NCBI GenBank assembly: GCA_963836075.1
Contig: CAWIIB010000001.1
Span: 96,001-160,000 of the forward strand
Direction of reading: 5' to 3'
Source: an uncultured Acidobacteriota bacterium
GTDB lineage: Bacteria; Acidobacteriota; JAQAZP01
Length of the DNA: 64,000 nucleotides
Both the position numbers and the translations under genes were made by a program. The notes beneath the pieces are model-generated. The model did no database searches, was not told the origin of the DNA, and saw only the letters and a list, made by a program, of their open reading frames with translations. Position 1 is the first letter of the stretch, and each line of letters starts with the position of its first letter. Below are positions 6,195-60,998 of this stretch, piece by piece.

Positions 6195-7557
6195 GATTTC
6201 GGGCCGGCCTTGCGCTTGCGGCGGCGGATTTCCTCCCAGCGGTCACGAAATCGCTGCTCCATCCCCTCGCTGGTGGGGCGGTAGTAGCGGCGGCCGGCCA
6301 GGTTTTCCGGCAGGCAGTCCATGTCCGCCACCCCCTCCTCGAGGTCGTGGGCGTACTGGTAGCCCCGGCCGTAGCCGGCGGATTTCATCAGCCTGGTGGG
6401 GGCGTTTCTGATGTGCAGCGGCACGGGCAGTGCCGGGTGGCGCTGGATGTCCTTGCGCACCCTGGACCAGGCGGTGTAGATGGCGTTGCTCTTGGGGGTC
6501 AGGGCGAGGTAGACCGCCGCTTCGGCCAGGGCCAGTTCGCCCTCCGGCAGGCCGATGAAGTGCACGGCGTCACGGGCGCTGAGGACCACCCGCAGGGCAT
6601 TGGGGTCGGCCAGCCCCACGTCTTCGGAGGCGAAGCGGACCAGCCGGCGGGCGATGTAGAGCGGGTCCTCCCCGCCGTCCAGCATCCGTCCCAGCCAGTA
6701 GAGCGCTGCGTCGGGGTCGCTGTTGCGCAGGCTCTTGTGCAGGGCGGAGATGATGTTGAAGTGCTCATCGCCGCCCTTGTCGTAATAGAGCGTTTTGCGT
6801 GCGGCCACGCCGGCAACCGTCTCCTGGTCGATGACCAGCTCCCCCCCGGGACCGGGGTCGCGGCTCTCGGCCAGACGGGCGGAGGCCTCGAGCAGGTTCA
6901 GGGCACGGCGGGCGTCACCGTCGGCCAGGGCGGCGATCCGCTCCAGGGCCGCCCCGCCGGCCGAGAGGGGAAGGCGAGCCCAGCCCCTGTTCCTTGTCCA
7001 GCAGGGCCCGGGAGAGGACCTGCTTCATCTCCTCCACGTCCAGCGGCTGGAGTATGTGCACTGCCAGGCGTGAGAGCAGCGGGCCGATCACCTCGAACGA
7101 CGGGTTTTCCGTGGTGGCGCCGATGAGCACGATATCGCCCGATTCCACCCGGGGCAGGAAGGCGTCCTGCTGGGCCTTGTTGAAACGGTGGATCTCGTCG
7201 ACGAAGAGGATGGTCCTGGAGCCGTCCATCCTCCGTTTTCCGGCGGCCTCCTCCATCACCTGCCGCACCTCGCTGGATGCCGGCAAGGACCGCGCTGAAC
7301 TCCACGAAGCGGCTGCGGGTGGTGGCGGCGATCAGCCGGGCCAGGGTGGTCTTTCCCGAGCCGGGCGGGCCCCAGAAGATGCAGGACTGCGGGTCGTCGC
7401 GCTCCACGGCCAGGCGCAGCGGCGTTCCGGGACCGAAGACCTCGCCCTGGCCGACGAAATCGGCCAGGGTGGACGGGCGCATCCGGTCGGCCAGGGGCCG
7501 GTCCGCCGCAGCGCCGCCCTCGAGATTTATCAGATCCCGCTGGCCCGGGGGTTTCAT
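6191..7557 (-). CDS. rarA: replication-associated recombination protein A (RarA/MgsA); split by two +1 frameshifts near 7275 and 6968, probably sequence errors
   Basis: PLADRMRP, WGPPGSGKTT, LFVDEIHRFNKAQQD, GATTENPSF, ISALHKSLRNSDPDAA, ASEDVGLADP distributed over three frames. Confidence 0.9.
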
Positions 7558-8414
7558 CGGTGCGGCCCTCCCGCCGGCGGGAAGCGGTAGCCGCGCTGCC
7601 GGGCAGCCTCGTAGAGCAGCACGGCGGCGGCCGACCCGACGTTGAGCGAATCGGCTCCGTGGCGCATCGGTATGCTCACCGTCAGATCGGCGGCGGCGAT
7701 ATCGGTGGCGGTCAGGCCTTCGCCTTCGCGGCCCATGAGCAGGGCGAAGGGGCTGCGCAGGTCGCACTCCTGGAGCGGGGTGCCCTCCAGGTGGGCGGCC
7801 ACAACCCTCATCCCCCTGGAGCGGCAGAACGCCAAGGCCAGCTCCAGTGAACCGGCCACCGACACCGGGACCCGGAAGAGGGAACCCATGGCGGTCCGCA
7901 CGGTCTTGGGGTTGAAGGGGTCCACCGTCTCCGGCGTGGTGATCACCCCGTCCGCTCCCGAGGCGTCGGTGGAACGAAAAATCGCCCCGAGGTTTCCCGG
8001 GTCCTGGACCCGGTGGGCCACTACCACCGACCGTGCCGCCCAGGGCGGGAATTCACCCAGCGGGACGTCGTGCCTGGCGGCCACGGCCACCACTCCCTGG
8101 TGCGTCCTGGTTTCGTGGAGCGCGGCCATCAGACTGTCCGGGACGGCGGCCACCCGATCGGCCCGGCCGCCCAGTGTCTCGGCCAGACGCCTGCCGCGCG
8201 GGCTGCGGAACAGCCGCGGGCTGACCAGGGCAACGGGCAGGTCAACACCGGCCGCGGCGGCGTCCTCGACCAGCCGGACCCCTTCGGCGGGGTAGAGCCC
8301 CGACGAACGGCGGAACTTGGCATGTCGCAGGGCGCGCACCCGGCGGACCAGCGGGTTGTCCCTGCTCCTGATCCTTGCCATTCCCTGGGGAATCGCGGCC
8401 TCTCCGTCACCCAT
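7554..8414 (-). CDS. TrmH/SpoU family RNA methyltransferase
   Basis: VQDPGNLGAIFRS, MGREGEGL, SIPM..ADSLNV SPOUT motifs; ATG 8414 after AAGGAGG. Confidence 0.9.
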   Translation of the reverse strand: MGDGEAAIPQGMARIRSRDNPLVRRVRALRHAKFRRSSGLYPAEGVRLVEDAAAAGVDLPVALVSPRLFRSPRGRRLAETLGGRADRVAAVPDSLMAALHETRTHQGVVAVAARHDVPLGEFPPWAARSVVVAHRVQDPGNLGAIFRSTDASGADGVITTPETVDPFNPKTVRTAMGSLFRVPVSVAGSLELALAFCRSRGMRVVAAHLEGTPLQECDLRSPFALLMGREGEGLTATDIAAADLTVSIPMRHGADSLNVGSAAAVLLYEAARQRGYRFPPAGGPHR

Positions 8415-10660: not shown

Positions 10661-12463
10661 ATGGGTGAAATCCGCCTGCTCCCCGACAACCTGATCAACA
10701 AGATCGCCGCGGGAGAGGTGGTCGAGCGACCGGCGTCGGTGGTCAAGGAACTGGTGGAGAACGCTCTGGATGCCGGCGCGTCGGCGGTGACCGTGGTGCT
10801 GGAGGAGGGCGGCCGGCGAAAGGTGCTGGTGGAGGACGACGGCCGGGGGATGGCGCGGGATGACGCGTTGCTGGCCTTCCAGCGTCATGCCACCAGCAAG
10901 CTGGAAGGGGAGGAGGACCTGGAGCGGATCCGCTTCCTCGGCTTCCGCGGTGAGGCCCTGCCCAGCATGGCGTCGGTCTCCCGCATGCTGCTGCGGACCA
11001 GGTCGGCGGCGGCCGGTTCAGGAGTGCAGATCCGTATCGAGGGCGGCGGGGAGGCCGAAGTTCGCGATATCGGTTTCCCGCGGGGAACCTCCGTGGAGGT
11101 GGCCGACCTCTTCTACAACGTTCCGGCCCGGCGAAAATTCCTCCGCACGCCGGGCACCGAACTCTCCCACGCGTCGGCGGTGGTCACCCGCACCGCGCTG
11201 GCCCACCCCGGAGTGATCTTCGAACTGCGCCACGACGGCCGGCAGCTGCTGCAGTGGTCCGCCGTGGCCACCCTCCGCGAACGCCTGCACCAGGTCTATG
11301 GCGAGGAGCGGATCGGGCAGCTGCTGGAGTTCGATGAGCAGCGGGGGGGAGGCCGGGTGCGTGTGGCCGGAGTGCTCTCACCGGTGGACCCCACCTCGTC
11401 CAGGCGGAAGAGCGCGGGCAGCCTGGTCTATGTCAACAACCGGCCGGTCACCGATCGCAAGGTGATCCAGGCGGTGCGGGTGGCCTACCGCGACGTCTCG
11501 GTCACCGGCGCCAACCCCTTCTATGTTGTCTTCCTCACCCTGCCTCCGGAGGAGGTGGACGTCAATGTCCACCCCACCAAGAACGAGGTCCGCTTCCGGA
11601 ATTCCGGAGCGGTTTTCCAGGCGGTATCCGGGGCGGTGCGCCGGGCGCTGCAGGGGGGCGGCGGCAGCGAGGGGCTGCCGGAGCCGTCCGGCAGCGGGCC
11701 CACCGTTGCCGCGGCCGGCAACTGGCCGCAGCGGCCCCCGGCCACCCCGGTGGCTGCTGAACAGCTGCCGTTCCGGAGGGCCGGTGGAGAGCCGTCCTGG
11801 AACCTGCCCCCCTCCTCCGGGTCGGCCCCGGCGGTGCACGAGCCGGGCCCCCAACCGCTGGCCCGGGCCGAGGTGGTCCCCGGAAGCTGGCGCCTGCTGG
11901 GGCAGCTGCACAACAGCTACCTGCTGGTGGAAGACCACCGGGGGCTGCTGGTGGTGGACCAGCACGTGGCCCACGAGCGGGTGCTCTACGAACGGTATCT
12001 GGCGGGCGTGCGGCAGGACAAGATCACCGTTCAGGGGCTGCTGGTGCCGGCGGTGATCGAAACCGAGCCGGCCAGCGGGGCCATCCTGGAGCAACTGCTC
12101 CCCCAGCTGGCTGAACTGGGCATCGAGCTGGAGCATTTCGGCGGCAGCACCTTCCTGCACAAGGGGCACCCCGACTTTCTCGAACAGTTCGAAGTCGAGC
12201 CGTTTCTCCACGAGGTGGTGGCCGCCGTCCGCGACCGGGACGGGACGGCAGGCGAACTGGCCCGGGAGATCCGCCAGCGGCTGCTCATCTCGGCGGCCTG
12301 TCACGCGGCGATCAAGATCAACACCCCGCTGGTCCGGGAGAAAATGGAACAGCTGCTGGCCGACCTGCTGCAGACGGAAAACCCGCTGTTCTGCCCCCAC
12401 GGTCGGCCCATCGTGCTGCGCTTTCCGCTGGCCGGCATCGAAAAGTCGTTTTTGAGGAGCTGA
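10661..12463 (+). CDS. mutL: DNA mismatch repair protein MutL (endonuclease-type)
   Basis: NKIAAGEVVERPASVVKELVEN, GFRGEAL, DVNVHPTK, DQHVAHERVLYE, ACH, CPHGRP. Confidence 0.96.
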   Translation: MGEIRLLPDNLINKIAAGEVVERPASVVKELVENALDAGASAVTVVLEEGGRRKVLVEDDGRGMARDDALLAFQRHATSKLEGEEDLERIRFLGFRGEALPSMASVSRMLLRTRSAAAGSGVQIRIEGGGEAEVRDIGFPRGTSVEVADLFYNVPARRKFLRTPGTELSHASAVVTRTALAHPGVIFELRHDGRQLLQWSAVATLRERLHQVYGEERIGQLLEFDEQRGGGRVRVAGVLSPVDPTSSRRKSAGSLVYVNNRPVTDRKVIQAVRVAYRDVSVTGANPFYVVFLTLPPEEVDVNVHPTKNEVRFRNSGAVFQAVSGAVRRALQGGGGSEGLPEPSGSGPTVAAAGNWPQRPPATPVAAEQLPFRRAGGEPSWNLPPSSGSAPAVHEPGPQPLARAEVVPGSWRLLGQLHNSYLLVEDHRGLLVVDQHVAHERVLYERYLAGVRQDKITVQGLLVPAVIETEPASGAILEQLLPQLAELGIELEHFGGSTFLHKGHPDFLEQFEVEPFLHEVVAAVRDRDGTAGELAREIRQRLLISAACHAAIKINTPLVREKMEQLLADLLQTENPLFCPHGRPIVLRFPLAGIEKSFLRS

Positions 12464-12466
12464 AGG

Positions 12467-13153
12467 GTGACCAGGCGCTTCAAGGGCAACGACCTGCTGG
12501 TCCCGGTGCTGGCTCTCCTCCTGCTGGCGAGCGCCGTGCTGCCGGCAGGGGAGACCGTGCATTTTCGCAACGGCCGCAGGATGCGGGTGAGCTCCAGCGA
12601 GCACGAGGGAGCGCTCTACGTTCTGCGCCTGGACAATGGCGGCGTGATCCGGGTGCCGGAGGACCAGGTGGACCGGATCGAGGCCGATGCCGAAGCGGAT
12701 GAGCAGCCGGGGCCGTCAGGGGGAGGAGCCAGGTTGGATCAGTTCATCGCCAGCAAGGAGGCCGGGGCCCTGCGCCAGCTGATCCGCCGGGCGGCGCTGG
12801 ACCACCGCCTGGAGGAGGAGCTGCTGGTGGCGGTGATTTTTGCCGAATCGGCCTTCGATCCCCTGGCCGTTTCGCCCAAGGGCGCCATGGGGTTGATGCA
12901 GCTGATGCCGGACACCGCCGCCCGCTTCGGCGTGGATCAGCCCTTCGATCCCTGGCAAAACCTCAATGGCGGTGCGGCCTACCTCCGGCAGCTCTTCGAC
13001 AAATACGGCGGGGACCTGAAACTGGCCCTGGCGGCGTACAATGCGGGTGAGGGGCGGGTCCGGACCTACCAGGGGGTGCCGCCGTTCAGTGAAACGGTCA
13101 GCTATATCAGCCGGGTGATCACCCTCTACCAGTCATTCCGGCAGGGCGGCTGA
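12467..13153 (+). CDS. lytic transglycosylase (SLT domain), secreted
   Basis: AESAFDPLAVSPKGAMGLMQLMP, ALAAYNAG, GVPPFSET; signal peptide. Confidence 0.92.
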   Translation: MTRRFKGNDLLVPVLALLLLASAVLPAGETVHFRNGRRMRVSSSEHEGALYVLRLDNGGVIRVPEDQVDRIEADAEADEQPGPSGGGARLDQFIASKEAGALRQLIRRAALDHRLEEELLVAVIFAESAFDPLAVSPKGAMGLMQLMPDTAARFGVDQPFDPWQNLNGGAAYLRQLFDKYGGDLKLALAAYNAGEGRVRTYQGVPPFSETVSYISRVITLYQSFRQGG

Positions 13154-13167
13154 ACCGGCGGCGCCGA

Positions 13168-13195
13168 TTGACAAGCCAGTGGCCGTGGCTATAAT
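13168..13195 (+). promoter_or_regulatory. consensus sigma70 promoter of yceD-rpmF-plsX
   Basis: TTGACA(13168-73)-16 bp-TATAAT(13190-95). Confidence 0.8.
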
Positions 13196-13250
13196 GAACC
13201 CGTTTAAAACAAAGGCGATAGAACCTTGGGCATGGCCGGGGGGGCGGTTG

Positions 13251-13811
13251 ATGAAGATCGACTTGAAAGAGATCGGTGCCTCGGGCATCTCCATCCAGCG
13301 CACCATACCCGCTGAGCGGTTCCATCAGGATGATGAAACCGGCCGCGGGATACTGCGGCTGCGTCACGATGCGTTGCTGAACCTGTCCGTCAAAAGGGCC
13401 GGCGAGCGGTTCCACCTCCGCGGGACCCTGGAGGCGGAGGTGGAGGCGGAGTGCGGGCGATGTCTGGCCCCTTTTTCGTTTGCGGTTCGTCCCCAGTTCG
13501 ATTATTATCTCGTGCCCCGGCGGCACGTTGAGGAGTGGGCCGAGGTGGAGATGGACGAAGCGGCCAAGCAGGAGGTGGAGGTGGACAGCATGGAGCTGGA
13601 CCTCCTGCACCTGGCGCGGGAACAGGTGCGGCTTGGTCTGCCGATGAAGCTGCTCTGCTCCGAGGCATGCCAGGGACTCTGTCTCGGATGCGGCGGCGAT
13701 CTGAACCGGGAGCAGTGCGCCTGCACCGGCGATGACCGGGACGATGATTCAGGCCTGGCGGTCCTGTCCGGCCTGCTGGAACGGTTGAAGAACGATTCCT
13801 CCGGTAACTGA
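13251..13811 (+). CDS. yceD: DUF177/YceD family protein
   Basis: ECGRCL and LPMKLLCSEACQGLCLGCGGDLN motifs; position upstream of rpmF. Confidence 0.9.
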   Translation: MKIDLKEIGASGISIQRTIPAERFHQDDETGRGILRLRHDALLNLSVKRAGERFHLRGTLEAEVEAECGRCLAPFSFAVRPQFDYYLVPRRHVEEWAEVEMDEAAKQEVEVDSMELDLLHLAREQVRLGLPMKLLCSEACQGLCLGCGGDLNREQCACTGDDRDDDSGLAVLSGLLERLKNDSSGN

Positions 13812-13882
13812 CCCGCTGGTTCCGTGTTGCGGGCGCTTCAGCCGGGGAACAGAACGAGACGTGACAAAGGAGATGGGAAAAG

Positions 13883-14065
13883 ATGGCCAATCCGAAGCGC
13901 AGACATTCCAAGGCCCGGCGGGACAAAAGACGGACCCATGACAGTCTCACGCCCCCCAGCCTGTCGGTGTGCCCCAACTGCAACGAGCCGAAGCAACCTC
14001 ACCGGGTGTGCCCGCACTGCGGGTTCTACAAAGGTAAGGAAGTCGTTGAGATCAAAATGGCCTGA
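13883..14065 (+). CDS. rpmF: 50S ribosomal protein L32
   Basis: [34 protein letters not shown]. Confidence 0.97.
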
Positions 14066-14090
14066 TCTGGGGCCGGCAGCCGGGTGAAAA

Positions 14091-15107
14091 ATGAAAATCG
14101 CCGTCGACGCCATGGGCGGAGACTTTGCCCCCCGAAACGCGGTGGAAGGTGCGGTGGATGCCTGCCGCGAGTTCCAGCTGCCGGTGATTCTGGTGGGCCG
14201 GGAAGGGGAGATCCAGCAGGAACTGGATCGTCTCGGAGCCCGCGGCCTGCCCATCGACGTGGTTCATGCCGAAGAAGTGGTGGGCATGGACGAACCGGCG
14301 ATAACCGCGATCCGCAAGAAAAAGAAATCGTCCATCCGTATCGGCGCACGACTGGTCAAGGACGGTGACGCCCAGGGCTTCGTCAGCGCCGGCAATACCG
14401 GCGCGGTGATGGCCACCTCCAAGATCGTGATGAAATCACTGGAGGGGGTGCAGCGTCCGGCGCTGGCCACCGTGATGCCCACCAAGACCGGCTCCTCGAT
14501 CCTGCTCGACGTGGGCGCCAACGTGGATTGCCGGGCCAGGCACCTGATGCAGTTCGCGGTGATGGGCAGTTTCTACGCCGAGGCGATCCTCGGCCGCCGC
14601 AAGCCGAAGGTCGGCCTGCTGAGCATCGGTGAAGAGGACTCCAAGGGCAATGAGCAGACGAGGCAGGTGTTCGACATCCTGCGCCAGACGAGCATCAATT
14701 TCGTGGGCAACGTCGAGGGGCGGGATGTCTTCAACGGATCGGTGGACGTGATTGTCTGCGACGGCTTTGTGGGCAACATCACCCTCAAGGTGAGCGAGAG
14801 CCTGGCCGAGACCATGGAGCACCTGATCCGCTCCGAGATCGAGCGCAGTCTGCTTGCCCGGGTTGGCTACCTCTTCATGAAGCCGGCGTTCAACAAGTTC
14901 AAGAAGCGGGTCGATTATTCGGAATATGGAGGTGCCCCCCTGCTGGGCATCGGCGGGGTCTGCATCATCTGTCACGGACGGTCCTCGCCCAAGGCGATCA
15001 AGAATGCCGTGCGGGTGGCCGGGGATTTCTGTGCCAAGGACGTGAACGGCCAGATCTCCCGGGGCCTGGCCGAACTGGTTCGGCAGGAGGACAATGTCCT
15101 GGCCTGA
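14091..15107 (+). CDS. plsX: phosphate acyltransferase PlsX
   Basis: IAVDAMGGDFAP, SAGNTGA, LDVGAN, CDGFVGN, GGAPLLG, HGRSS. Confidence 0.96.
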   Translation: MKIAVDAMGGDFAPRNAVEGAVDACREFQLPVILVGREGEIQQELDRLGARGLPIDVVHAEEVVGMDEPAITAIRKKKKSSIRIGARLVKDGDAQGFVSAGNTGAVMATSKIVMKSLEGVQRPALATVMPTKTGSSILLDVGANVDCRARHLMQFAVMGSFYAEAILGRRKPKVGLLSIGEEDSKGNEQTRQVFDILRQTSINFVGNVEGRDVFNGSVDVIVCDGFVGNITLKVSESLAETMEHLIRSEIERSLLARVGYLFMKPAFNKFKKRVDYSEYGGAPLLGIGGVCIICHGRSSPKAIKNAVRVAGDFCAKDVNGQISRGLAELVRQEDNVLA

Positions 15108-15125
15108 AGGCCCGCCCGGGCCGTC

Positions 15126-15153
15126 TTGACTCGGGGGGGCAATCGGCTAGAAT
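15126..15153 (+). promoter_or_regulatory. internal sigma70-type promoter upstream of acd-fabG-acpP-fabF-etfBA
   Basis: TTGACT(15126-31)-16 bp-TAGAAT(15148-53). Confidence 0.6.
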
Positions 15154-15303
15154 GATTGTTCGAATTTTCCGAATTTCAGAAACAGTTGAGGATCAGTCAT
15201 CCCGGGTTCGTGCCCGGACGGGACGCGGACCGGGCTGTTCGGCCTGCGCACGCGGCTGGTTCACAGGTTATCGCAGATCGACTTAAGGAGTGAGCCCCGA
15301 CCC

Positions 15304-16470
15304 ATGGAGTGGATGCTGAACGAAGAGCAGCGTGAAATCCAGGCCCTGACCCGCAAGATCGTGGACGAGAAGGTGGTCCCGGTCCGGATGGAGCTGGACA
15401 GGGCCGAGACGTTCCCCTGGGAACAGATCAACCTTTTCGCCGATGCCGGGCTGTTCGGCGTGTTCGTCGAGGAGAAATACGGCGGGTTCGGCGGAGCGAT
15501 GACCGACTGGTGCCTGGTGACCGACGAGATCAGCCGCGGCTGTATGGGCGTCTCCACCGCTTTTGCCGGCGTGGGGCTGGGCGCCTTCCCGCTGATCCTC
15601 GATGGCAACGAGGAACTGAAGGAGAAATATCTGCCCGGCATCGCCACGGGCAAGAGCCTGGCCGCTTTCGCCCTCACCGAGGCTGACGCCGGCAGCGACG
15701 CCGGCGGGATCAGGACCACGGCGGTGCGCGACGGCGACCATTTCGTGATTAACGGGACCAAGCAGTGGATCACCAACGCCGAGGTGGCCCAGACCTACTG
15801 CGTGGTGGCGATGACCAACCCGGCCAAGGGCCCGCGGGGGGCCAGCGTGATCCTGGTGGAGAAGGGCACCCCGGGGTTCACCTTCGGCAAGCTGGAAAAA
15901 AAGATGGGCATCAATTGCTCGTCCACCCGTGAGCTGATCTTCGAGGACTGTCGCGTTCCGGTGGCCAACCTGGTGGGGCGCGAGGGGGCCGGTTTTATCG
16001 TCACCATGCGAACCCTGAGCCGGGCCCGGGTGGGTGTCGGCGCGCAGGCGGTGGGCCTGTGCCGCGGGGCGTTGGAGCTGACGGTGGACTACTCGCGGCA
16101 GCGCAAGCAGTTCGACCGTCCCATCTGCTCTTTCCAGGCCGTGCAGCACATCCTCGCCGACATGGCCACCCAGACCGAAGCCGCGCGCTCGCTGGTCTAC
16201 AACACCACCAGGATGATCGACTGCGGCGCGAAGAATTTCGCCAAACGGGCGGCGATGGTCAAACTCTTCGCCTCCGACGTGGCGATGAAGGTGACCACCG
16301 ATGCGGTCCAGGTCTTCGGCGGGTACGGCTACATGAGGGAATACCCGGTGGAAAAGATGATGCGTGACGCCAAGATCCTGCAGATCTACGAGGGGACGAA
16401 CCAGATTCAGCGAAACGAGATCGGCGCCGCGCTGATCAAGGAGTCTGCATCCCGCAAGAGGAACAAATGA
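15304..16470 (+). CDS. acyl-CoA dehydrogenase family flavoprotein embedded in the FASII cluster
   Basis: AFALTEADAGSD, NGTKQWITN, RKQF, QVFGGYGYMREYPVEKMMRDAKILQIYEGTNQIQR with catalytic Glu in YEGT. Confidence 0.95.
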   Translation: MEWMLNEEQREIQALTRKIVDEKVVPVRMELDRAETFPWEQINLFADAGLFGVFVEEKYGGFGGAMTDWCLVTDEISRGCMGVSTAFAGVGLGAFPLILDGNEELKEKYLPGIATGKSLAAFALTEADAGSDAGGIRTTAVRDGDHFVINGTKQWITNAEVAQTYCVVAMTNPAKGPRGASVILVEKGTPGFTFGKLEKKMGINCSSTRELIFEDCRVPVANLVGREGAGFIVTMRTLSRARVGVGAQAVGLCRGALELTVDYSRQRKQFDRPICSFQAVQHILADMATQTEAARSLVYNTTRMIDCGAKNFAKRAAMVKLFASDVAMKVTTDAVQVFGGYGYMREYPVEKMMRDAKILQIYEGTNQIQRNEIGAALIKESASRKRNK

Positions 16471-17228
16471 CCGTCATGGGCAGCGGGACACGCTTTGCAG
16501 GGAAACGGGCCATCGTCACCGGTGCCGCCCGGGGCATCGGTCTCTCCATCAGCCGGCTGCTGGCCGCGGAGGGGGCGCGGGTGGCCCTGGTGGACCTGGA
16601 TCAGGATGCCCTGTCCGCCGCCGCCAACCTGCTGTCCGGGGAGGGTGGCCAGTGCGTGGCCCACTGTCTCGACGTTGCCGACTCCGCAGCGGTGAAGGAA
16701 GCGGTGGCTGCGGTGAGCGGGGAATGGGGCGGCGTGGATTTCCTGGTCAACAATGCCGGGATCACCCGTGACAGCCTGATGCTGCGGATGAAAAAAGCCG
16801 ACTGGGACCTGGTGCTGCGGGTCAACCTGGACAGCGTGTTCCACTTCTCCCAGGCGGTGCTCAAACCGATGATCAAGGCCCGGCAGGGCCGGATCATCAG
16901 CATCAGTTCCGTGGTGGGGGTGATGGGCAATCCGGGGCAGGCAAACTACGCGGCCTCAAAAGCGGGCATCATCGGCTTCTCGCGCTCGCTGGCCCGGGAA
17001 GTGGCTCCGCGGGGAATCACGGTGAACGTCGTGGCCCCCGGGTTTATCGACACCGAGATGACCTCCGGGCTGCCCGAGGGGGTGCGCGAGGACCTGCTGT
17101 CCAGGGTTCCCCTGGGCCGGCTGGGGACGGTGGAGGACATCGCCCGCAGTGTGGCCTTTCTGCTGGGAGACGACTCCGCCTACATCACCGGGCAGGTGCT
17201 CGGTGTCAATGGCGGAATGTATATGTAG
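16467..17228 (+). CDS. fabG: 3-oxoacyl-ACP reductase
   Basis: TGAARGIG, NNAGITRD, NYAASKAG, VAPGFIDTEMT, VNGGMYM; ATGA overlap with the ACAD stop. Confidence 0.95.
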   Translation: MTVMGSGTRFAGKRAIVTGAARGIGLSISRLLAAEGARVALVDLDQDALSAAANLLSGEGGQCVAHCLDVADSAAVKEAVAAVSGEWGGVDFLVNNAGITRDSLMLRMKKADWDLVLRVNLDSVFHFSQAVLKPMIKARQGRIISISSVVGVMGNPGQANYAASKAGIIGFSRSLAREVAPRGITVNVVAPGFIDTEMTSGLPEGVREDLLSRVPLGRLGTVEDIARSVAFLLGDDSAYITGQVLGVNGGMYM

Positions 17229-17328
17229 CCGGGCCGGCGGCCGGTCCGGACCGTTGATGCCGCCGGAAGCGATTTGATCACATCAGCCCTCTGATCTTTC
17301 ACTTAAACGTACTTTGGGAGGTTTTCGG

Positions 17329-17574
17329 ATGGACGAGAAAAAAATCGAGGCGAAGGTCAAGGAAATCGTCATGGAGCAGCTGGGTGTGGACGAGGAGGAA
17401 GTGACCCAGGAGGCCTCTTTTGTCGACGACCTCGGCGCCGATTCCCTGGATACCGTGGAACTGGTGATGGCCTTCGAGGAAGAGTTCGACATCGAAATTC
17501 CCGACACCGACGCTGAAAAAATCAGCCGGGTCAAGGAAGCCGTCGAATACATCAAGGGCCACATCGACAGCTGA
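17329..17574 (+). CDS. acpP: acyl carrier protein
   Basis: [20 protein letters not shown] phosphopantetheine motif. Confidence 0.97.
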
Positions 17575-17731
17575 CCGGCTTCCCGGTCCCCACGGCGGGC
17601 AGACCGCTGGCGGCGTCACCGCCGCCGGGGACTCTTTCGCCCCCGGCGAGGGCACCGTGGAGCCCGGCTGTCTCTGGTCACCTGCCGAACCTCGCCCGGT
17701 GAGCGGCCTGATCGGAGGAGGTGCTGAAGAG

Positions 17732-18975
17732 ATGACGAAAAGACGAGTGGTCATCACCGGTCTCGGATTGGTCACCCCGCTGGGCCTGGGCAACGACGCC
17801 AACTGGGAGGCCCTGCGGTCCGCCAGGAGCGGCGTCGGGCTGATCACCCACTTCGACACCACCGACTACCCGGTGAAAATCGCCGCTGAAGTCCGGGACT
17901 TCGACCCGCTGCAGTTCATCGACAAGAAAGAACTGAAGAAGATGGACCGCTTCATCCACTTCGCCATTGCCGCGGCCCAGTTCGCGGTGGAGGACAGCGG
18001 CCTCGACCTCGCGGCCCTCGATTCCGATCGGGCCGGGGTGAGCATCGGCAGCGGCATCGGCGGCCTGGAGTCCATCGAGCGGCAGCACAAGGTGGTGCTG
18101 GAGCGCGGCCCAAAACGGATATCGCCTTTCTTCATCCCCGGCCTGATCGTCAACCTGGCGGCGGGTCACGTCTCGATCCGTTTCCGGGCCCGGGGGCCCA
18201 ACCTCGCCCATTGCACCGCCTGTTCCACCGGGACCCATGCCGTGGGGGAAGCCTTCCGCGCCATCCAGTACGGACATGCCGATCGGATGATCTGCCGGCG
18301 GCACCGAGGCGGTCATCTGCCCGCTGGCCGTGGGCGGGTTCGCGGCGATGAAGGCCCTCTCCACCCGCAACGACGACCCGGCCACGGCCAGCCGGCCCTT
18401 CGACGCCACCCGCGACGGCTTCGTGATGGGCGAGGGCGCCGGGGTGCTGATCCTCGAGGAGCGGGAGGCCGCGGTGGCCCGCGGAGCGCGGATCTATGCC
18501 GAGCTGAGCGGCTTCGGGATGGCGGCGGACGCCTTCCATATCACTGCGCCCAGCGAGGACGGTGACGGGGCGTTGCGGGTGATGAAGGCCGCCATCGAGG
18601 ATGCCGGCTGTCGCCCTTGCGGACGTGGACTACATCAACGCCCACGGCACGGCCACGCCACCCGGCGATCGTACCGAGACCCTGGCGATCAAGAATCTCT
18701 TCGGTGATCACGCCCGCAAGCTCGCCGTCAGCTCCACCAAGTCTTCCACCGGCCACCTGCTGGGTGCCGCCGGAGGCGTGGAAACGGCGATCACTGCCTG
18801 GGCGGTGCTCAACGACATTCTGCCGCCCACCATCAACCTGCAGCACCCGGACCCGGACTGCGACCTGGACTACGTGCCCAACGAGGCCCGTCCGTCCGAG
18901 GTGCGCATCGCCCTGACCAACTCCTTCGGCTTCGGGGGAACGAACGCGTCCCTGTTGCTGAGGAAGCACGAGTAG
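17732..18975 (+). CDS. fabF: beta-ketoacyl-ACP synthase II; two +1 frameshifts near 18295 and 18617, probably sequence errors
   Basis: [15 protein letters not shown] (Cys), [19 protein letters not shown] (His), [12 protein letters not shown] (His), NSFGFGGTN across three frames. Confidence 0.93.
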
Positions 18976-19010
18976 CGGCCCCAAGCCTTCCACATCAATC
19001 GGAGAGAGAA

Positions 19011-19800
19011 ATGAACTCAATTGTCTGTCTGAAGCAGGTCCCGGACACCGAAGCGAGGATCAAGATCGCTCCCGACAAGGTGGGGATCGACGAGAGCGAC
19101 ATCCAGCTGGTGGTCAATCCCTTTGACGAATACGCCATCGAAGCCGCCCTGCTGCTCAAGGAGCAGGCGGGGCAGGGGACCGTGACCCTGGTCAGCCAGG
19201 GCGGGGAATCTGCCGCGACGGCGCTGCGCACCGGTCTGGCCATGGGGGCCGACAGCGCGGTGCTGCTCAAGGACCCGGCCTTCGACGGGCTCCGACTCCC
19301 TCGGTGTGGCGCGGATTCTCGCTTCGGCCATCTCCACCATGGAATTCGACGTGATCCTCCTCGGCAAGTACGGGGTGGGCGGGGACAACAACCAGGTGGG
19401 GCCGATGCTGGCCCAGTTGCTGGACCTGCCGCACGTCGGGGTGGCGATCCAGCTGGAGGTCGCCGAGGGGCAGGCCGTGGTGCACCGGTCGGTGGAGGGG
19501 GCGGTGGAAGTCGTGGAGACGTCCCTGCCCGCCGTGATCACCGCGGAGAAGGGGCTCAACGAACCGCGCTACGCCTCGCTCAAGGGAATCATGATGGCCA
19601 AACGCAAACCGATCGAGGAGCGTGACGCCGCCGCCCTGGGGCTGGATGCGGGTACCGTGGGAACTGCCGGGGCACTGCTGCAGCAGACCCGGCTGGAACT
19701 CCCGCAGCCCCGGCCCGAGGGGCGGATCATCGAAGGGGAGCCGGCCGAGGCGGCAAGGGAACTGGTCCGGCTGCTCCACGAAGAGGCCAAAGTCATCTGA
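19011..19800 (+). CDS. etfB: electron transfer flavoprotein beta subunit; one +1 frameshift near 19288
   Basis: IVCLKQVPDT, NPFDEYAIEAAL, LAMGAD in frame 1; QVGPMLA, NEPRYASLKGIMMAKRK in frame 2. Confidence 0.92.
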
Positions 19801-19836
19801 GGCAACCATCTGGCCCAGCGACGAGGGACAACAATC

Positions 19837-20826
19837 ATGGCACATACATCGATACTGGTTTTTGCAGAACAGCGGGACGGCAGTCTGAAGAAGGCCGCCG
19901 TCGAAGCGGTGTCCGAAGGACGGCGAGTGGCCGACCAGCTGGGCGCCGAACTCCACGTGGCCCTGCTGGGCAGCGGGCTGGACAGTCTGGCCGGCGGCCT
20001 CGAGGGCTGGGGCATCGATCAGCTGCACACCGCCGACCACCCCGACCTGCGCTACTACAGCGCTGAAGGCTACAGCCTTGTGCTGGCGGCGATGATCGGT
20101 CAACTCTCACCGTCCGTGGTGCTCCTCCCCGCCACGGCCATGGGCAAGGACGTGGCTCCCCGGGTGGCGGCCATCTGCGGCGCCGGGCTGGCCACCGACT
20201 GCACCGCCCTCTCCGTGGAAGACGGAAGGCTCACGGCCCAGCGGCCGGTCTATGCCGGCAAGGCCATCGCCACCGTGCGCTGGGCCGGGGAGACGATGCA
20301 GATGGCCACCCTGCGGCCCAACGTTTTTGCCGCTTCGACGCGGGATGGTTCCGGCGCACCGGCGGCCGCTCCTTTCACCGTGGAGGGGCTGGAAGGAAAG
20401 ATCCGGGCCCGGGTGCGGGACGTGGAGGGCGGCGGCGGCGGGACAAAGGATGTCACCGAGGCCGACGTGATCGTGGCCGGCGGGCGCGGGATGAAGGGGG
20501 CGGAGCACTTCTCGCTGCTCGAGGACCTGGCCCGCCAGCTCGACGGGGCGGTGGGCGCCTCCCGGGCGGTGGTGGATTCGGGCTGGATCAGTCACCAGGC
20601 ACAGGTGGGTCAGACCGGCAAGACGGTTTCCCCGCAGCTCTACATCGCCTGCGGCATCTCCGGGGCGATCCAGCACCTGGCCGGCATGTCCTCCTCCAAG
20701 TGCATCGTGGCGGTGAACAAGGACCCCGAAGCGCCGATCTTCAAGGTGGCCGACTACGGCATCGTGGGCGACCTGTTCGAAGTGGTTCCGGTGCTCACCG
20801 AGGAGATCGCGCGGCTCAAGGAGTAG
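19837..20826 (+). CDS. etfA: electron transfer flavoprotein alpha subunit
   Basis: [51 protein letters not shown]. Confidence 0.96.
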
Positions 20827-20827
20827 G

Positions 20828-22063
20828 GTGCGATACGAACTCTTCATCGCCCTGCGCTACCTCAAGGCGAGGCGCAAGCAGACCTTCGTCTCTGTGATCA
20901 CCGGGATTTCCATGCTCGGTGTGATCGTCGGGGTCACCGCGCTGGTCATCGCCCTGGCCCTGGCTGCCGGGTTCCGCCAGGATTTCCGGGACAAGATTCT
21001 CGGCGCCGAAGCCCACATCTACATCTACGGGTTCTCTTCGGCCGGGGGCATCACCGACACCGCAGGACTGGTTCGCCGCGCCGAAGCGCAGGACAATGTC
21101 CACGCTGCCGCCCCGATGGCCTGGGGCGTGGGGCTGGTATCCAGCGGACTGGACAACCGTTTCGTCCGGATCAAGGGCGTGGATCCCGCCTCGAATATCC
21201 GCCAGGTGGTGGATTTCAGCAGCTACCTGGTGTCCGGAATGCTGGAAGACCTCCAGCCGGCGGCCGGCCGGCGGCCGGGGATCATCCTCGGCCAGGGGCT
21301 GGCCAGAGTGCTCGGTTCCGGCGTGGGGGACACGGTGCGGGTTCTGACCCAGAACGGGTCCCTCTCTCCGCTGGGTCTCCTGCCCCGCCCCCGCTCCTTC
21401 CGGGTGGCCGGCATCTTTTCTTCGGGTATGTCGGACTACGACGACCAGTGGGCCTTTGTCTCGCTGGCTGAGGCACGGCGGCTGCTGTCGCTGGAAGCCG
21501 GGGCCAGCGTGGTGCTGGTGCGGGTGGAGGACGTGGGCCGGCTGGAACAGACCCGGGAGGACCTTGCCGGGGAACTGGGACAGGGATACCTGGTCAAGGA
21601 CATCCTCACCGAGAACCGTCCGCTCTTTTCGGCGCTGAAAGTGGAGAAGTTGATGACCTTCATCACCATCGGCCTGATCGTGATGGTGGCCGCCCTCAAT
21701 ATTGTCTCCAGCCTGGTGATGATGGTGATGGAGAAGACGCGGGACATTGCCGTGCTGCGGTCCATGGGGGCCACCCGGGGGGCGATCACCAGGATCTTCA
21801 TCTACCAGGGCAGCATCGTCGGGATTGCGGGGACCCTGGTGGGCTGCGCCGCGGGGTTCGTCTCGGCCCGGCTGCTCGACAGTTGGCAATTGATCCGCCT
21901 CGATCCCCGGGTCTACTACATTGACTATGTGCCCTTCCGTATCATGCCCCTCGATTTCACCCTGGTGGCCGTCACGGCGGTGTTGATCAGTTTCCTGGCC
22001 ACCCTCTACCCGGCCTGGCAGGCGGCTCGCCTGGAACCGGCGGAGGCGCTGCGCTATGAGTGA
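20828..22063 (+). CDS. lolC: lipoprotein-releasing ABC transporter permease (LolC/E)
   Basis: [49 protein letters not shown]. Confidence 0.92.
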   Translation: MRYELFIALRYLKARRKQTFVSVITGISMLGVIVGVTALVIALALAAGFRQDFRDKILGAEAHIYIYGFSSAGGITDTAGLVRRAEAQDNVHAAAPMAWGVGLVSSGLDNRFVRIKGVDPASNIRQVVDFSSYLVSGMLEDLQPAAGRRPGIILGQGLARVLGSGVGDTVRVLTQNGSLSPLGLLPRPRSFRVAGIFSSGMSDYDDQWAFVSLAEARRLLSLEAGASVVLVRVEDVGRLEQTREDLAGELGQGYLVKDILTENRPLFSALKVEKLMTFITIGLIVMVAALNIVSSLVMMVMEKTRDIAVLRSMGATRGAITRIFIYQGSIVGIAGTLVGCAAGFVSARLLDSWQLIRLDPRVYYIDYVPFRIMPLDFTLVAVTAVLISFLATLYPAWQAARLEPAEALRYE

Positions 22064-29543: not shown

Positions 29544-29549
29544 CCATTG

Positions 29550-29984
29550 ATGACCATCGATTTTCGCGAAATACTGGAGATCATGCCGCACCGCTATCCG
29601 TTCCTCCTGGTGGACCGGATCCTGGAATGCGAGAAGGGGAAGCGGGTGGTGGGGATCAAGAACGTGACCTTCAACGAACCGTTCTTCCAGGGCCATTTCC
29701 CCGGGGCGCCGGTGATGCCCGGCGTGCTGATTCTCGAGGCCATGGGCCAGGTGGGGGCGGTGCTCCTGCTGCAGGCGGTGCCTGACCGGGAAAAGAAGTT
29801 GATCTACTTCGTCGGCATCGACGAGGCCCGGTTCCGGCAGCCGGTGGTGCCGGGCGACCAGCTCCGCTTCGAGCTTGAGGTGTTGCGGCAGAAACCGAAG
29901 ATCGCCAAGGTCAAGGGGCGCGCCTACGTCGAGGACAAGCTGGTGGCCGACGCGGTCCTGACATCCTTTATCGTCGACCGCTGA
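29550..29984 (+). CDS. fabZ: 3-hydroxyacyl-ACP dehydratase
   Basis: [30 protein letters not shown]. Confidence 0.96.
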
Positions 29985-55475: not shown

Positions 55476-55552
55476 CGGGACGTAGCGCAGCCTGGTAGCG
55501 CACCGGTCTGGGGGACCGGTGGTCGGAGGTTCAAATCCTCTCGTCCCGACCA
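55476..55552 (+). tRNA. tRNA-Pro(GGG)
   Basis: 77 nt cloverleaf CGGGACG...CGTCCCG ACCA, anticodon loop CT-GGG-GG, T loop GGTTCAAATCC. Confidence 0.96.
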
Positions 55553-58170: not shown

Positions 58171-58247
58171 CGGGACGTAGCGCAGTCTGGTAGCGCACCT
58201 GCTTCGGGAGCAGGGGGTCGGAGGTTCAAATCCTCTCGTCCCGACCA
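58171..58247 (+). tRNA. tRNA-Pro(CGG)
   Basis: 77 nt cloverleaf, anticodon arm CCTGC-TT-CGG-GA-GCAGG, CCA end. Confidence 0.96.
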
Positions 58248-60921: not shown

Positions 60922-60998
60922 GCGCCTGTAGCTCAGGTGGATAGAGCAAGGGATTCCTAATCCCTGTGCCGGGGGTTCGAGTCCTCCCAGGCGCACCA
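60922..60998 (+). tRNA. tRNA-Arg(CCT)
   Basis: GCGCCTG...CAGGCGC ACCA, anticodon arm AGGGA-TT-CCT-AA-TCCCT, GGTTCGAGTCC. Confidence 0.95.

Follow-up and report, generated by a model that had tools for sequence, protein, structure and literature searches.

How does a bacterium complete the fatty-acid elongation cycle when none of the known enoyl-ACP reductases (ACP, acyl carrier protein) can be found in its genome? Enoyl reduction is essential, sets the pace of fatty-acid synthesis in bacteria and is an established target for antibacterial agents. The question is raised by a stretch of 64,000 nucleotides from an uncultured Acidobacteriota bacterium (hereafter the window), in which a gene for a protein of the acyl-CoA dehydrogenase (ACAD) fold and the genes etfB and etfA of an electron-transferring flavoprotein (ETF) are built into a cluster for type II fatty-acid synthesis (FASII), because known reductases were not found in most of the ACAD-carrying genomes searched. 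From comparison of sequences, gene neighbourhoods and distributions, we tentatively suggest, at somewhat short of even chances, that the ACAD and EtfBA of the window form an ETF-coupled enoyl-ACP reductase of the ACAD fold. For operons of other phyla in which CarE-like etfBA genes adjoin the ACAD, the same assignment appears rather probable. It is weaker for the window because FabL, one of the known reductases, co-exists in the genome and because the ETF is atypical.

The cluster consists of nine genes on the forward strand (13179-20826; Table 1), and ORFs (open reading frames) and family scans place them in the order yceD-rpmF-plsX-ACAD-fabG-acpP-fabF-etfB-etfA. This is the order given by a first-pass annotation made from the sequence alone, and several of its details were likewise borne out: the ACAD stop and the fabG start overlap in ATGA (16467-16470), 35 nt separate the fabF stop from the etfB start, a promoter-like element, as a consensus match only, precedes the ACAD, and fabF, fabG and fabZ all lie in the window. 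With the ATGA overlap, the 35-nt gap and no terminator-like site at 13466-21200 in a pattern scan, the arrangement is that of a tight operon, in which etfBA lies 2.5 kb downstream of the ACAD. A scan of 12400-21200 for sigma-70-like promoters returned three sites, compared with 1.0 +/- 1.0 in shuffles. The dehydratase step is supplied by fabZ, located about 9 kb downstream of the cluster in an lpxD-fabZ-lpxA group. The acpP gene encodes the single ACP of the genome recovered with the window acpP as query, and its DSL motif is invariant among 37 aligned sequences; fabF is the sole close fabF in the genome. Neither fabH nor fabD lies within the window cluster; both are found elsewhere in the genome, as a fabH-like gene (233 bits, under the cut-off of 292) and a fabD (275 bits, over the cut-off).

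As assembled, fabF is split over three frames and etfB over two, and one surplus base explains each break (near 18295 and 18606-18608 in fabF, and at 19285-19290 in etfB). A pseudogene reading of the two genes was considered and is ruled out by intact orthologues, by the single close fabF and by independent contigs. Both orthologues are unbroken in the two genomes of the same genus (G001 and G002), and contigs from four runs in four studies, one of which is otherwise identical to the window, have one base fewer at 18295, 18606/18608 and 19285-19290. The breaks therefore stem from the assembly, and the cluster itself is unbroken. Near-identical or closely related sequence to window 17600-19900 was also seen in sediment and salt-marsh metagenome runs X1-X10 of several studies, the share of words in common being 0.32-0.63 and the X1 pieces carrying zero substitutions. 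On the reverse strand, an mgsA/rarA-type AAA+ gene (6206-7767) is read in three frames in the window and is unbroken in G001 and G002; counting those in fabF and etfB, five single-base frame breaks fall within about 20 kb, and indel errors are thus frequent in this assembly.

The linkage of ACAD, fab and etf genes proved to be conserved, as the first-pass annotation had anticipated. Within the phylum, orthologues 57-61% identical to the window ACAD sit in this cluster in five genomes, which represent three other families, in the order yceD-rpmF-plsX-(fabH)-ACAD-fabD-fabG-acpP-fabF-etfB-etfA; both same-genus genomes also possess the cluster, and it includes etfBA in 7 of the 13 relatives' loci examined. 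A wider scan, with an alignment of seven embedded ACADs and one genome per species, was limited to its best 80 loci (56-65% identity). The ACAD is fab-linked in 47 of these, etfBA being present too in 29; in 16 it is accompanied by etfBA only and in 17 it stands alone, loci L119 and L120 having been relabelled for these counts; many of the etfBA-only or lone-ACAD loci sit on short contigs. The record titles name Nitrospirota, Thermodesulfobacteriota, Omnitrophota, Margulisiibacteriota, Planctomycetota, Acidobacteriota and others. The carriers from other phyla are mostly anaerobes. At least three gene orders occur: plsX-fabH-ACAD-etfB-etfA-(fabD)-fabG-acpP-fabF; plsX-fabH-fabD-fabG-acpP-fabF-ACAD-etfB-etfA, in Omnitrophota and Planctomycetota; and plsX-(fabH)-ACAD-(fabD)-fabG-acpP-fabF, with etfBA after fabF or not adjacent. 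In the other phyla etfBA stands directly 3' of the ACAD, and the gaps are often 3-30 nt, as in locus L072 (fabH-[15]-ACAD-[9]-etfB...etfA-[15]-fabD).

In a quick tree of 97 ACADs, for which stops in L054, L071, L073 and L139 were read as X, the family forms one clade (Shimodaira-Hasegawa-like approximate likelihood-ratio support, SH-aLRT, 99). The fab-linked members are spread through this clade with 14 label changes, compared with 31.7 expected from shuffles, and the ACADs of the window's relatives group with loci titled Thermoanaerobaculaceae and Acidobacteriota. We regard the ACAD-ETF pair as a housekeeping member of the FASII operon. One could also suppose an ordinary catabolic or fermentative Bcd-EtfAB that came to lie in a lipid operon by co-regulation or historical accident. 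In favour of this, relatives are labelled butyryl-CoA dehydrogenase or acyl-CoA dehydrogenase in the source records, CoA enzymes provide the best NCBIfam models, albeit under cut-off, and the etfBA-only (16) and lone (17) members are intermixed with the fab-linked ones in the tree. It is the least unlikely of the three alternatives considered here, but unlikely nonetheless, since the FASII linkage persists at 57-65% identity in many phyla and has arisen in at least three gene orders, with reading frames that overlap or nearly do so. Moreover, the window's genome (G000) already has five further ACAD paralogues and a second etfB-etfA-ACAD cluster (G000:C1:1282179-1285101), 37-49% identical to the fab-linked set, which is likely the beta-oxidation ETF. 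Genes of beta-oxidation or butyrate metabolism do not flank the family either: no thiolase, hydroxyacyl-CoA dehydrogenase or crotonase occurs among the 25 commonest families of 101 ORFs flanking the 16 etfBA-only loci.

The window ACAD is one chain in which PF02771, PF02770 and PF00441 score 101.7, 95.2 and 173.5 bits, all over their cut-offs. It matches ACAD families only and belongs to none of FabI, FabL, FabK and FabV; standing outside these four known families, it would represent a further class if it is an enoyl-ACP reductase. The best NCBIfam models are each under their cut-offs, led by AcrC (434 bits, cut-off 640). RedW, PigA and MbtN demonstrate that an ACAD fold can accept substrates bound to ACP or peptidyl carrier protein (PCP), yet these enzymes are oxidative and serve secondary metabolism, and their models match the window ACAD partially and far under cut-off (82-250 bits, cut-offs 500-700). 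Among solved structures, the best relatives are 5ol2_C (383 bits) and 4l1f_A (365 bits), the ACAD-fold subunits of Bcd-EtfAB, followed by CarC (297 bits) of the caffeyl-CoA reductase-Etf complex CarCDE. The nearest solved relatives of both the ACAD and the ETF, namely Bcd-EtfAB and CarCDE, are all reductive, NADH-driven and ferredoxin-reducing.

Y362, E363 and G364 are invariant among 53 fab-linked ACADs; they lie in a YEGT stretch, kept between Bcd and the window ACAD, that we take to be the catalytic-glutamate motif of acyl-CoA dehydrogenases, with E363 presumably in the catalytic role. A basic C-terminal tail, SRKRNK, had been suggested to dock ACP, but it is not conserved: the consensus of the 53 fab-linked ACADs ends in LIKExxxxK. 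Positions 23, 173, 209 and 236 (numbered as in the window, where 173 is P) are basic only in this ACAD family, and no inference is drawn from them. A predicted complex of an ACAD dimer with flavin adenine dinucleotide (FAD) and ACP (score 0.00, mark 0.32) gives no verdict either way; of the alignments used for it, A3 was made without the partial L123 and without L054, whose match ends in an in-frame stop, and A4 without L093 (in-frame stop), L115 and L129. Longer relatives of the ACAD include tandem ACADs, ACAD-ETF fusions of about 685 aa in metagenome-assembled genomes (MAGs) of Clostridiales and Lachnospiraceae, and ACAD-rubredoxin-ETF_alpha fusions of about 690-750 aa.

The closest characterised relatives being butyryl-CoA dehydrogenases, and the ACAD lying directly 3' of fabH in many loci, the enzyme might instead be a short-chain enoyl-CoA reductase (crotonyl- or branched) that makes butyryl- or branched acyl-CoA as a primer for FabH, co-transcribed with FASII yet outside the elongation cycle. 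We consider such primer supply improbable, and the least probable of the three alternatives. The Omnitrophota and Planctomycetota ACADs follow fabF, far from fabH, and the window cluster has no fabH at all; no adjacent thiolase, hydroxyacyl-CoA dehydrogenase or crotonase would produce the enoyl-CoA; and the frequent lack of a known enoyl-ACP reductase in carriers would be left unexplained.

The best solved match of the window EtfA is CarE (6fah_A, 280 bits), followed by 4kpu_A and 5ol2_A, all above human ETF, and that of EtfB is CarD (153 bits). In the other phyla, the fab-linked EtfA is extended at its N terminus by about 70 aa with eight Cys in 13 of 13 loci examined (among them L072:9961-10167 and L109:10129-10329), and Pfam Fer4 (2x[4Fe-4S]) was recognised in both of the extensions scanned; CarE has the same kind of N-terminal two-cluster ferredoxin domain, a feature of the CarE/LctC subtype only. 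The EtfBs of these phyla agree at all four stretches that separate solved bifurcating EtfBs from the Paracoccus ETF. The fab-linked EtfAs of Acidobacteriota, the window's included, are without the eight-Cys extension. Compared for signs of a second (bifurcating) FAD and of NADH binding, the window EtfB agrees with 6fah_B and 4kpu_B at VCxKQVPDT and GD..QVGP but not at MGPPQA and DRAFxGADTxATS. A heme-copper oxidase and several 2-oxoacid:ferredoxin oxidoreductases are encoded in the window's genome.

An ACAD with an ETF is usually oxidative in aerobes, which raises the possibility of an acyl-ACP dehydrogenase that converts saturated acyl-ACP into trans-2-enoyl products, passes electrons to ETF and thus opens an O2-independent route to unsaturated or modified fatty acids. 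FabX of Helicobacter, a flavoenzyme, dehydrogenates decanoyl-ACP for unsaturated fatty acids, according to passages of PMC8626469, and a FabX-like role would fit the presence of FabL in the window's genome. On the other hand, FabZ already yields trans-2-enoyl-ACP in each cycle, an isomerase would be needed and none was seen in the clusters, the ETFs of the other phyla belong to the CarE type and bear a ferredoxin domain, as known from reductive complexes, and the reductase gap would remain. An oxidative role therefore seems decidedly unlikely.

The first-pass annotation had taken enoyl reduction to be the only elongation step without a gene. This holds within the window but not within the genome (6.23 Mb in 10 contigs, 94.7% complete), where FabL is encoded at G000:C1:1875459-1876196 (369.9 bits on NF005975, cut-off 328; 347.5 bits for a 233-aa part). 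That annotation had itself named a canonical reductase in the genome as evidence against its proposal, and the whole-genome search found one in FabL. The gene is isolated between unrelated genes, so that its context is uninformative. FabI gave no model match at 1e-50 or better in this genome and FabV was not found, while one NMO-family protein reached 150 bits on the FabK model and 194 bits on Pfam NMO.

Across 41 genomes of the phylum, including G000, eight have an embedded ACAD and 33 do not. FabI (model, 1e-50) was found in none of the eight, compared with 18 of the 33, and FabL over cut-off in five of the eight and in no others among the 41; thus, within the phylum, the ACAD replaces FabI in distribution and mostly co-occurs with FabL. 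A FabK-like gene is present in three of the eight and adjoins FabL in two. Only G014 and G031 (91-92% complete) among the eight have none of FabI, FabK, FabL and FabV, whereas 27 of the 33 non-embedded genomes have FabI, FabK-like or FabV; one of these 33, the unpublished G025, enters here only in that capacity (FabK-like match, 223 bits). Where FabL (363 bits) adjoins the FabK-like gene (328-343 bits), at G035:C7:188009-189756 and G018:C2:3162922-3164648, both in genomes with an embedded ACAD, the pair looks like a two-reductase module. The window's genome also has a second lipid-type cluster (G000:C9:2942600-2946170) with fabD-like and fabZ-like genes and a pair of ketosynthase genes, sharing 32-48% identity with the housekeeping set, which probably belongs to a specialised lipid or polyketide pathway.

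A census of carriers took in the genomes that harbour 50 of the 80 loci, namely 32 of the 47 fab-linked, 9 of the 16 etfBA-only and 9 of the 17 lone ones. FabI, FabK-like (at least 239 bits), FabL or FabV was found in 14 of the 50: FabI in four, FabK-like in seven (one also with FabI), FabL in two, FabV in one, and in one a 255-bit short-chain dehydrogenase/reductase (SDR) under the FabL cut-off. With ACAD and etfBA in the operon, 23 genomes gave three clear positives, one ambiguous case and 19 in which none was found. The ACAD in an operon without adjacent etfBA (nine genomes) was accompanied by a known family in seven, with none found in two; for etfBA-only loci (nine) these counts are two and seven, and for lone ACADs (nine) one and eight. 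All three alternatives discussed above leave this reductase gap unfilled. Since a reductive-type ACAD-ETF has been built repeatedly into FASII operons, most commonly where no other reductase was found, enoyl-ACP reduction would be the simplest account.

An even sample of 101 genomes from the phylum Thermodesulfobacteriota (handles taken as G066 and G091-G190) comprised 48 ACAD carriers and 53 non-carriers. FabI or FabK-like (1e-60 or better) was present in 15 of the 48 carriers versus 33 of the 53 non-carriers. Some genomes of the sample have up to eight FabK-like (NMO-family) paralogues; further unknown reductases in Thermodesulfobacteriota, or other roles for the NMO family, are likely. Two closed genomes, G129 and G106, contain the full operon (loci L140 and L141, L141 being that of G129). 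Closed G129 (2,540,211 bases) gave no FabI-model match at 1e-25 and no FabV, its best NMO-family match is 124 bits, and the FabL model recovers only the fabG of the operon. In G106, an NMO-family match reaches 185 bits and an SDR 147 bits on the FabI model.

A number of observations weigh against an ETF-coupled enoyl-ACP reductase. FabL is present in the window's genome, so the ACAD-ETF pair is not needed to close the elongation cycle there, and FabL and/or a FabK-like gene occurs in six of the eight embedded-ACAD genomes of the phylum. The window EtfA has ETF and ETF_alpha domains only, without the N-terminal ferredoxin domain, so that its CarE match begins at residue 69; in the EtfA tree, the Acidobacteriota sequences branch apart as one group; and the window EtfB equals the solved bifurcating EtfBs at only about two of the four signature stretches. 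ACP, rather than CoA, as the substrate carrier is inferred, short CoA esters are the substrates of the nearest characterised relatives, and no fusion of the ACAD to ACP or to a FAS domain was seen among 112 longer relatives. Regarding the census, its 50 loci were hand-chosen by the authors in favour of long flanks and different phyla, and most carrier genomes are MAGs. FabK-like or FabL is found in seven of the nine genomes whose fab-cluster ACAD has no adjacent etfBA, and weak NMO-family matches (141-199 bits in 11 of the 50 census genomes, 150 bits in the window's genome) could be divergent FabK. The Fisher value of 0.003 for the 101-genome contrast is overstated, as kin are not independent. 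Furthermore, 20 of the 53 non-carriers are also without FabI and FabK-like, so that a "missing" reductase is common in Thermodesulfobacteriota anyway, and FabL and FabV were searched in only 5 of the 101 genomes (G106, G129, G148, G178 and G185). The ETF-driven reductase of the first-pass annotation is partly supported: it gains from the operon linkage, the scarcity of reductases in other phyla and the reductive kin of the proteins, and loses from FabL here and from the six of eight in the phylum.

If the pair is an ETF-coupled enoyl-ACP reductase, its mechanism may be sketched by analogy with Bcd-EtfAB and CarCDE. FabZ would make trans-2-enoyl thioesters, which the ACAD would reduce: the ETF would receive hydride from NADH and pass electrons singly to the ACAD's FAD, and the ACAD would then reduce the C2=C3 bond with the conserved E363 as the putative proton donor. 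In the other phyla, the second electron would probably go to ferredoxin via the 2x[4Fe-4S] domain on EtfA. In the window's genome, the pair would act as a second reductase beside FabL. Gene order and its conservation, the protein families, the rarity of known reductases among carriers and the relationship to reductive bifurcating complexes come from the data themselves; we infer which way the reaction runs, that NADH is the donor, any bifurcation or coupling to ferredoxin, the chain-length range and, above all, ACP rather than CoA as carrier.

Several known systems resemble this arrangement in part. Bcd-EtfAB (5ol2 of C. difficile; 4l1f/4kpu of A. fermentans) likewise has an ACAD-fold subunit encoded together with EtfA and EtfB. 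It differs in context, as thiolase, Hbd and crotonase genes surround it, in contrast to plsX, fabH/D/G, acpP and fabF beside the fab-linked ACADs, for which the proposed carrier is ACP. CarCDE of Acetobacterium woodii (6fah), which provides the best solved EtfA and EtfB matches, serves a different pathway from the FASII cluster. Enoyl-ACP reductase genes within fab operons are not without parallel, since FabK is encoded inside the fab operons of Firmicutes. FabK is likewise a flavin-dependent, non-SDR enzyme, with its gene among fabH, acpP, fabD, fabG and fabF, and ACAD-etfBA occupies the equivalent place. Unlike ACAD-ETF, it is a single polypeptide with an NMO-type TIM barrel and flavin mononucleotide (FMN), and takes electrons directly from NAD(P)H with no ETF. 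E. faecalis is an example of FabK encoded in the fab operon (PMC9671860).

The nearest printed precedent is the reversed ACAD-ETF route of Euglena gracilis mitochondria, in which an acyl-CoA dehydrogenase and ETF reduce trans-2-enoyl thioesters for fatty-acid synthesis under anoxia. This eukaryotic route has CoA esters as intermediates, runs as reversed beta-oxidation with electrons supplied via complex I, rhodoquinone and ETF, and involves no FASII operon (PMC6587861). An enoyl-ACP reductase of the ACAD/ETF type is undescribed in the full-text literature searched, a coverage outside which most subscription journals fall, and a 2022 review of bacterial enoyl reductases contains none of the terms "acyl-CoA dehydrogenase", "electron transfer" and "ETF".

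An ETF-coupled ACAD reductase, if real, would offer a testable candidate for the reductase gap and would bring into anabolism a flavin-based step that possibly reduces ferredoxin. Metabolic reconstructions of many uncultured anaerobes, in which the gene is now listed as butyryl-CoA dehydrogenase, would change, and the interpretation of lipid hydrogen-isotope ratios would be touched as well, these being dependent on where the hydride for enoyl reduction comes from. A more far-reaching hypothesis is that ACAD-EtfBA constitutes a fifth class of enoyl-ACP reductase with a distinct mechanism, the main one across much of the anaerobic bacteria and bifurcating in its CarE-like form; we think this rather unlikely, if still worth stating. 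As such a class, it would be the main reductase in Nitrospirota, Thermodesulfobacteriota, Omnitrophota, Planctomycetota, Margulisiibacteriota and others. Should the CarE-like form bifurcate, two NADH would be oxidised in each elongation cycle to give one reduced enoyl-ACP together with reduced ferredoxin, and the making of membrane lipids would thereby hand low-potential electrons back to an energy-limited cell.

Table 1. Coordinates (window numbering) of the FASII cluster, its promoter-like elements and the downstream fabZ.
Feature	Position	Strand	Evidence and remarks
Promoter-like TTGACA-16-TATAAT	13168-13195	+	12/12 consensus; upstream of the likely yceD start; pattern match only
yceD	13251-13811	+	PF02620, 83 bits; ORF opens at 13179, ATG at 13251 the likelier start
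rpmF (ribosomal protein L32), 60 aa	13883-14065	+	98% identical in G001/G002; syntenic in all fab-linked loci; name presumed from position
plsX	14091-15107	+	TIGR00182, 373 bits (cut-off 243)
Promoter-like TTGACT-16-TAGAAT	15126-15153	+	sigma-70-like, 10/12; plsX-ACAD gap; pattern match only
ACAD, Bcd-like acyl-CoA-dehydrogenase fold, 388 aa; candidate enoyl-thioester reductase	15304-16470	+	three Pfam ACAD domains
fabG	16467-17228	+	NF004197, 337 bits (cut-off 332)
acpP	17329-17574 (ORF from 17314)	+	PF00550
fabF	17732-18975	+	family scan; three frames in the window
etfB	19011-19800	+	family scan; two frames in the window
etfA, 329 aa	19837-20826	+	PF01012 and PF00766
fabZ	29547-29984	+	PF07977, 132 bits; FabA-like domain, between lpxD and lpxA

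Further along the window, three tRNA genes lie on the forward strand at 55476-55549, 58171-58244 and 60922-60995 (Rfam RF00005, 63-68 bits).

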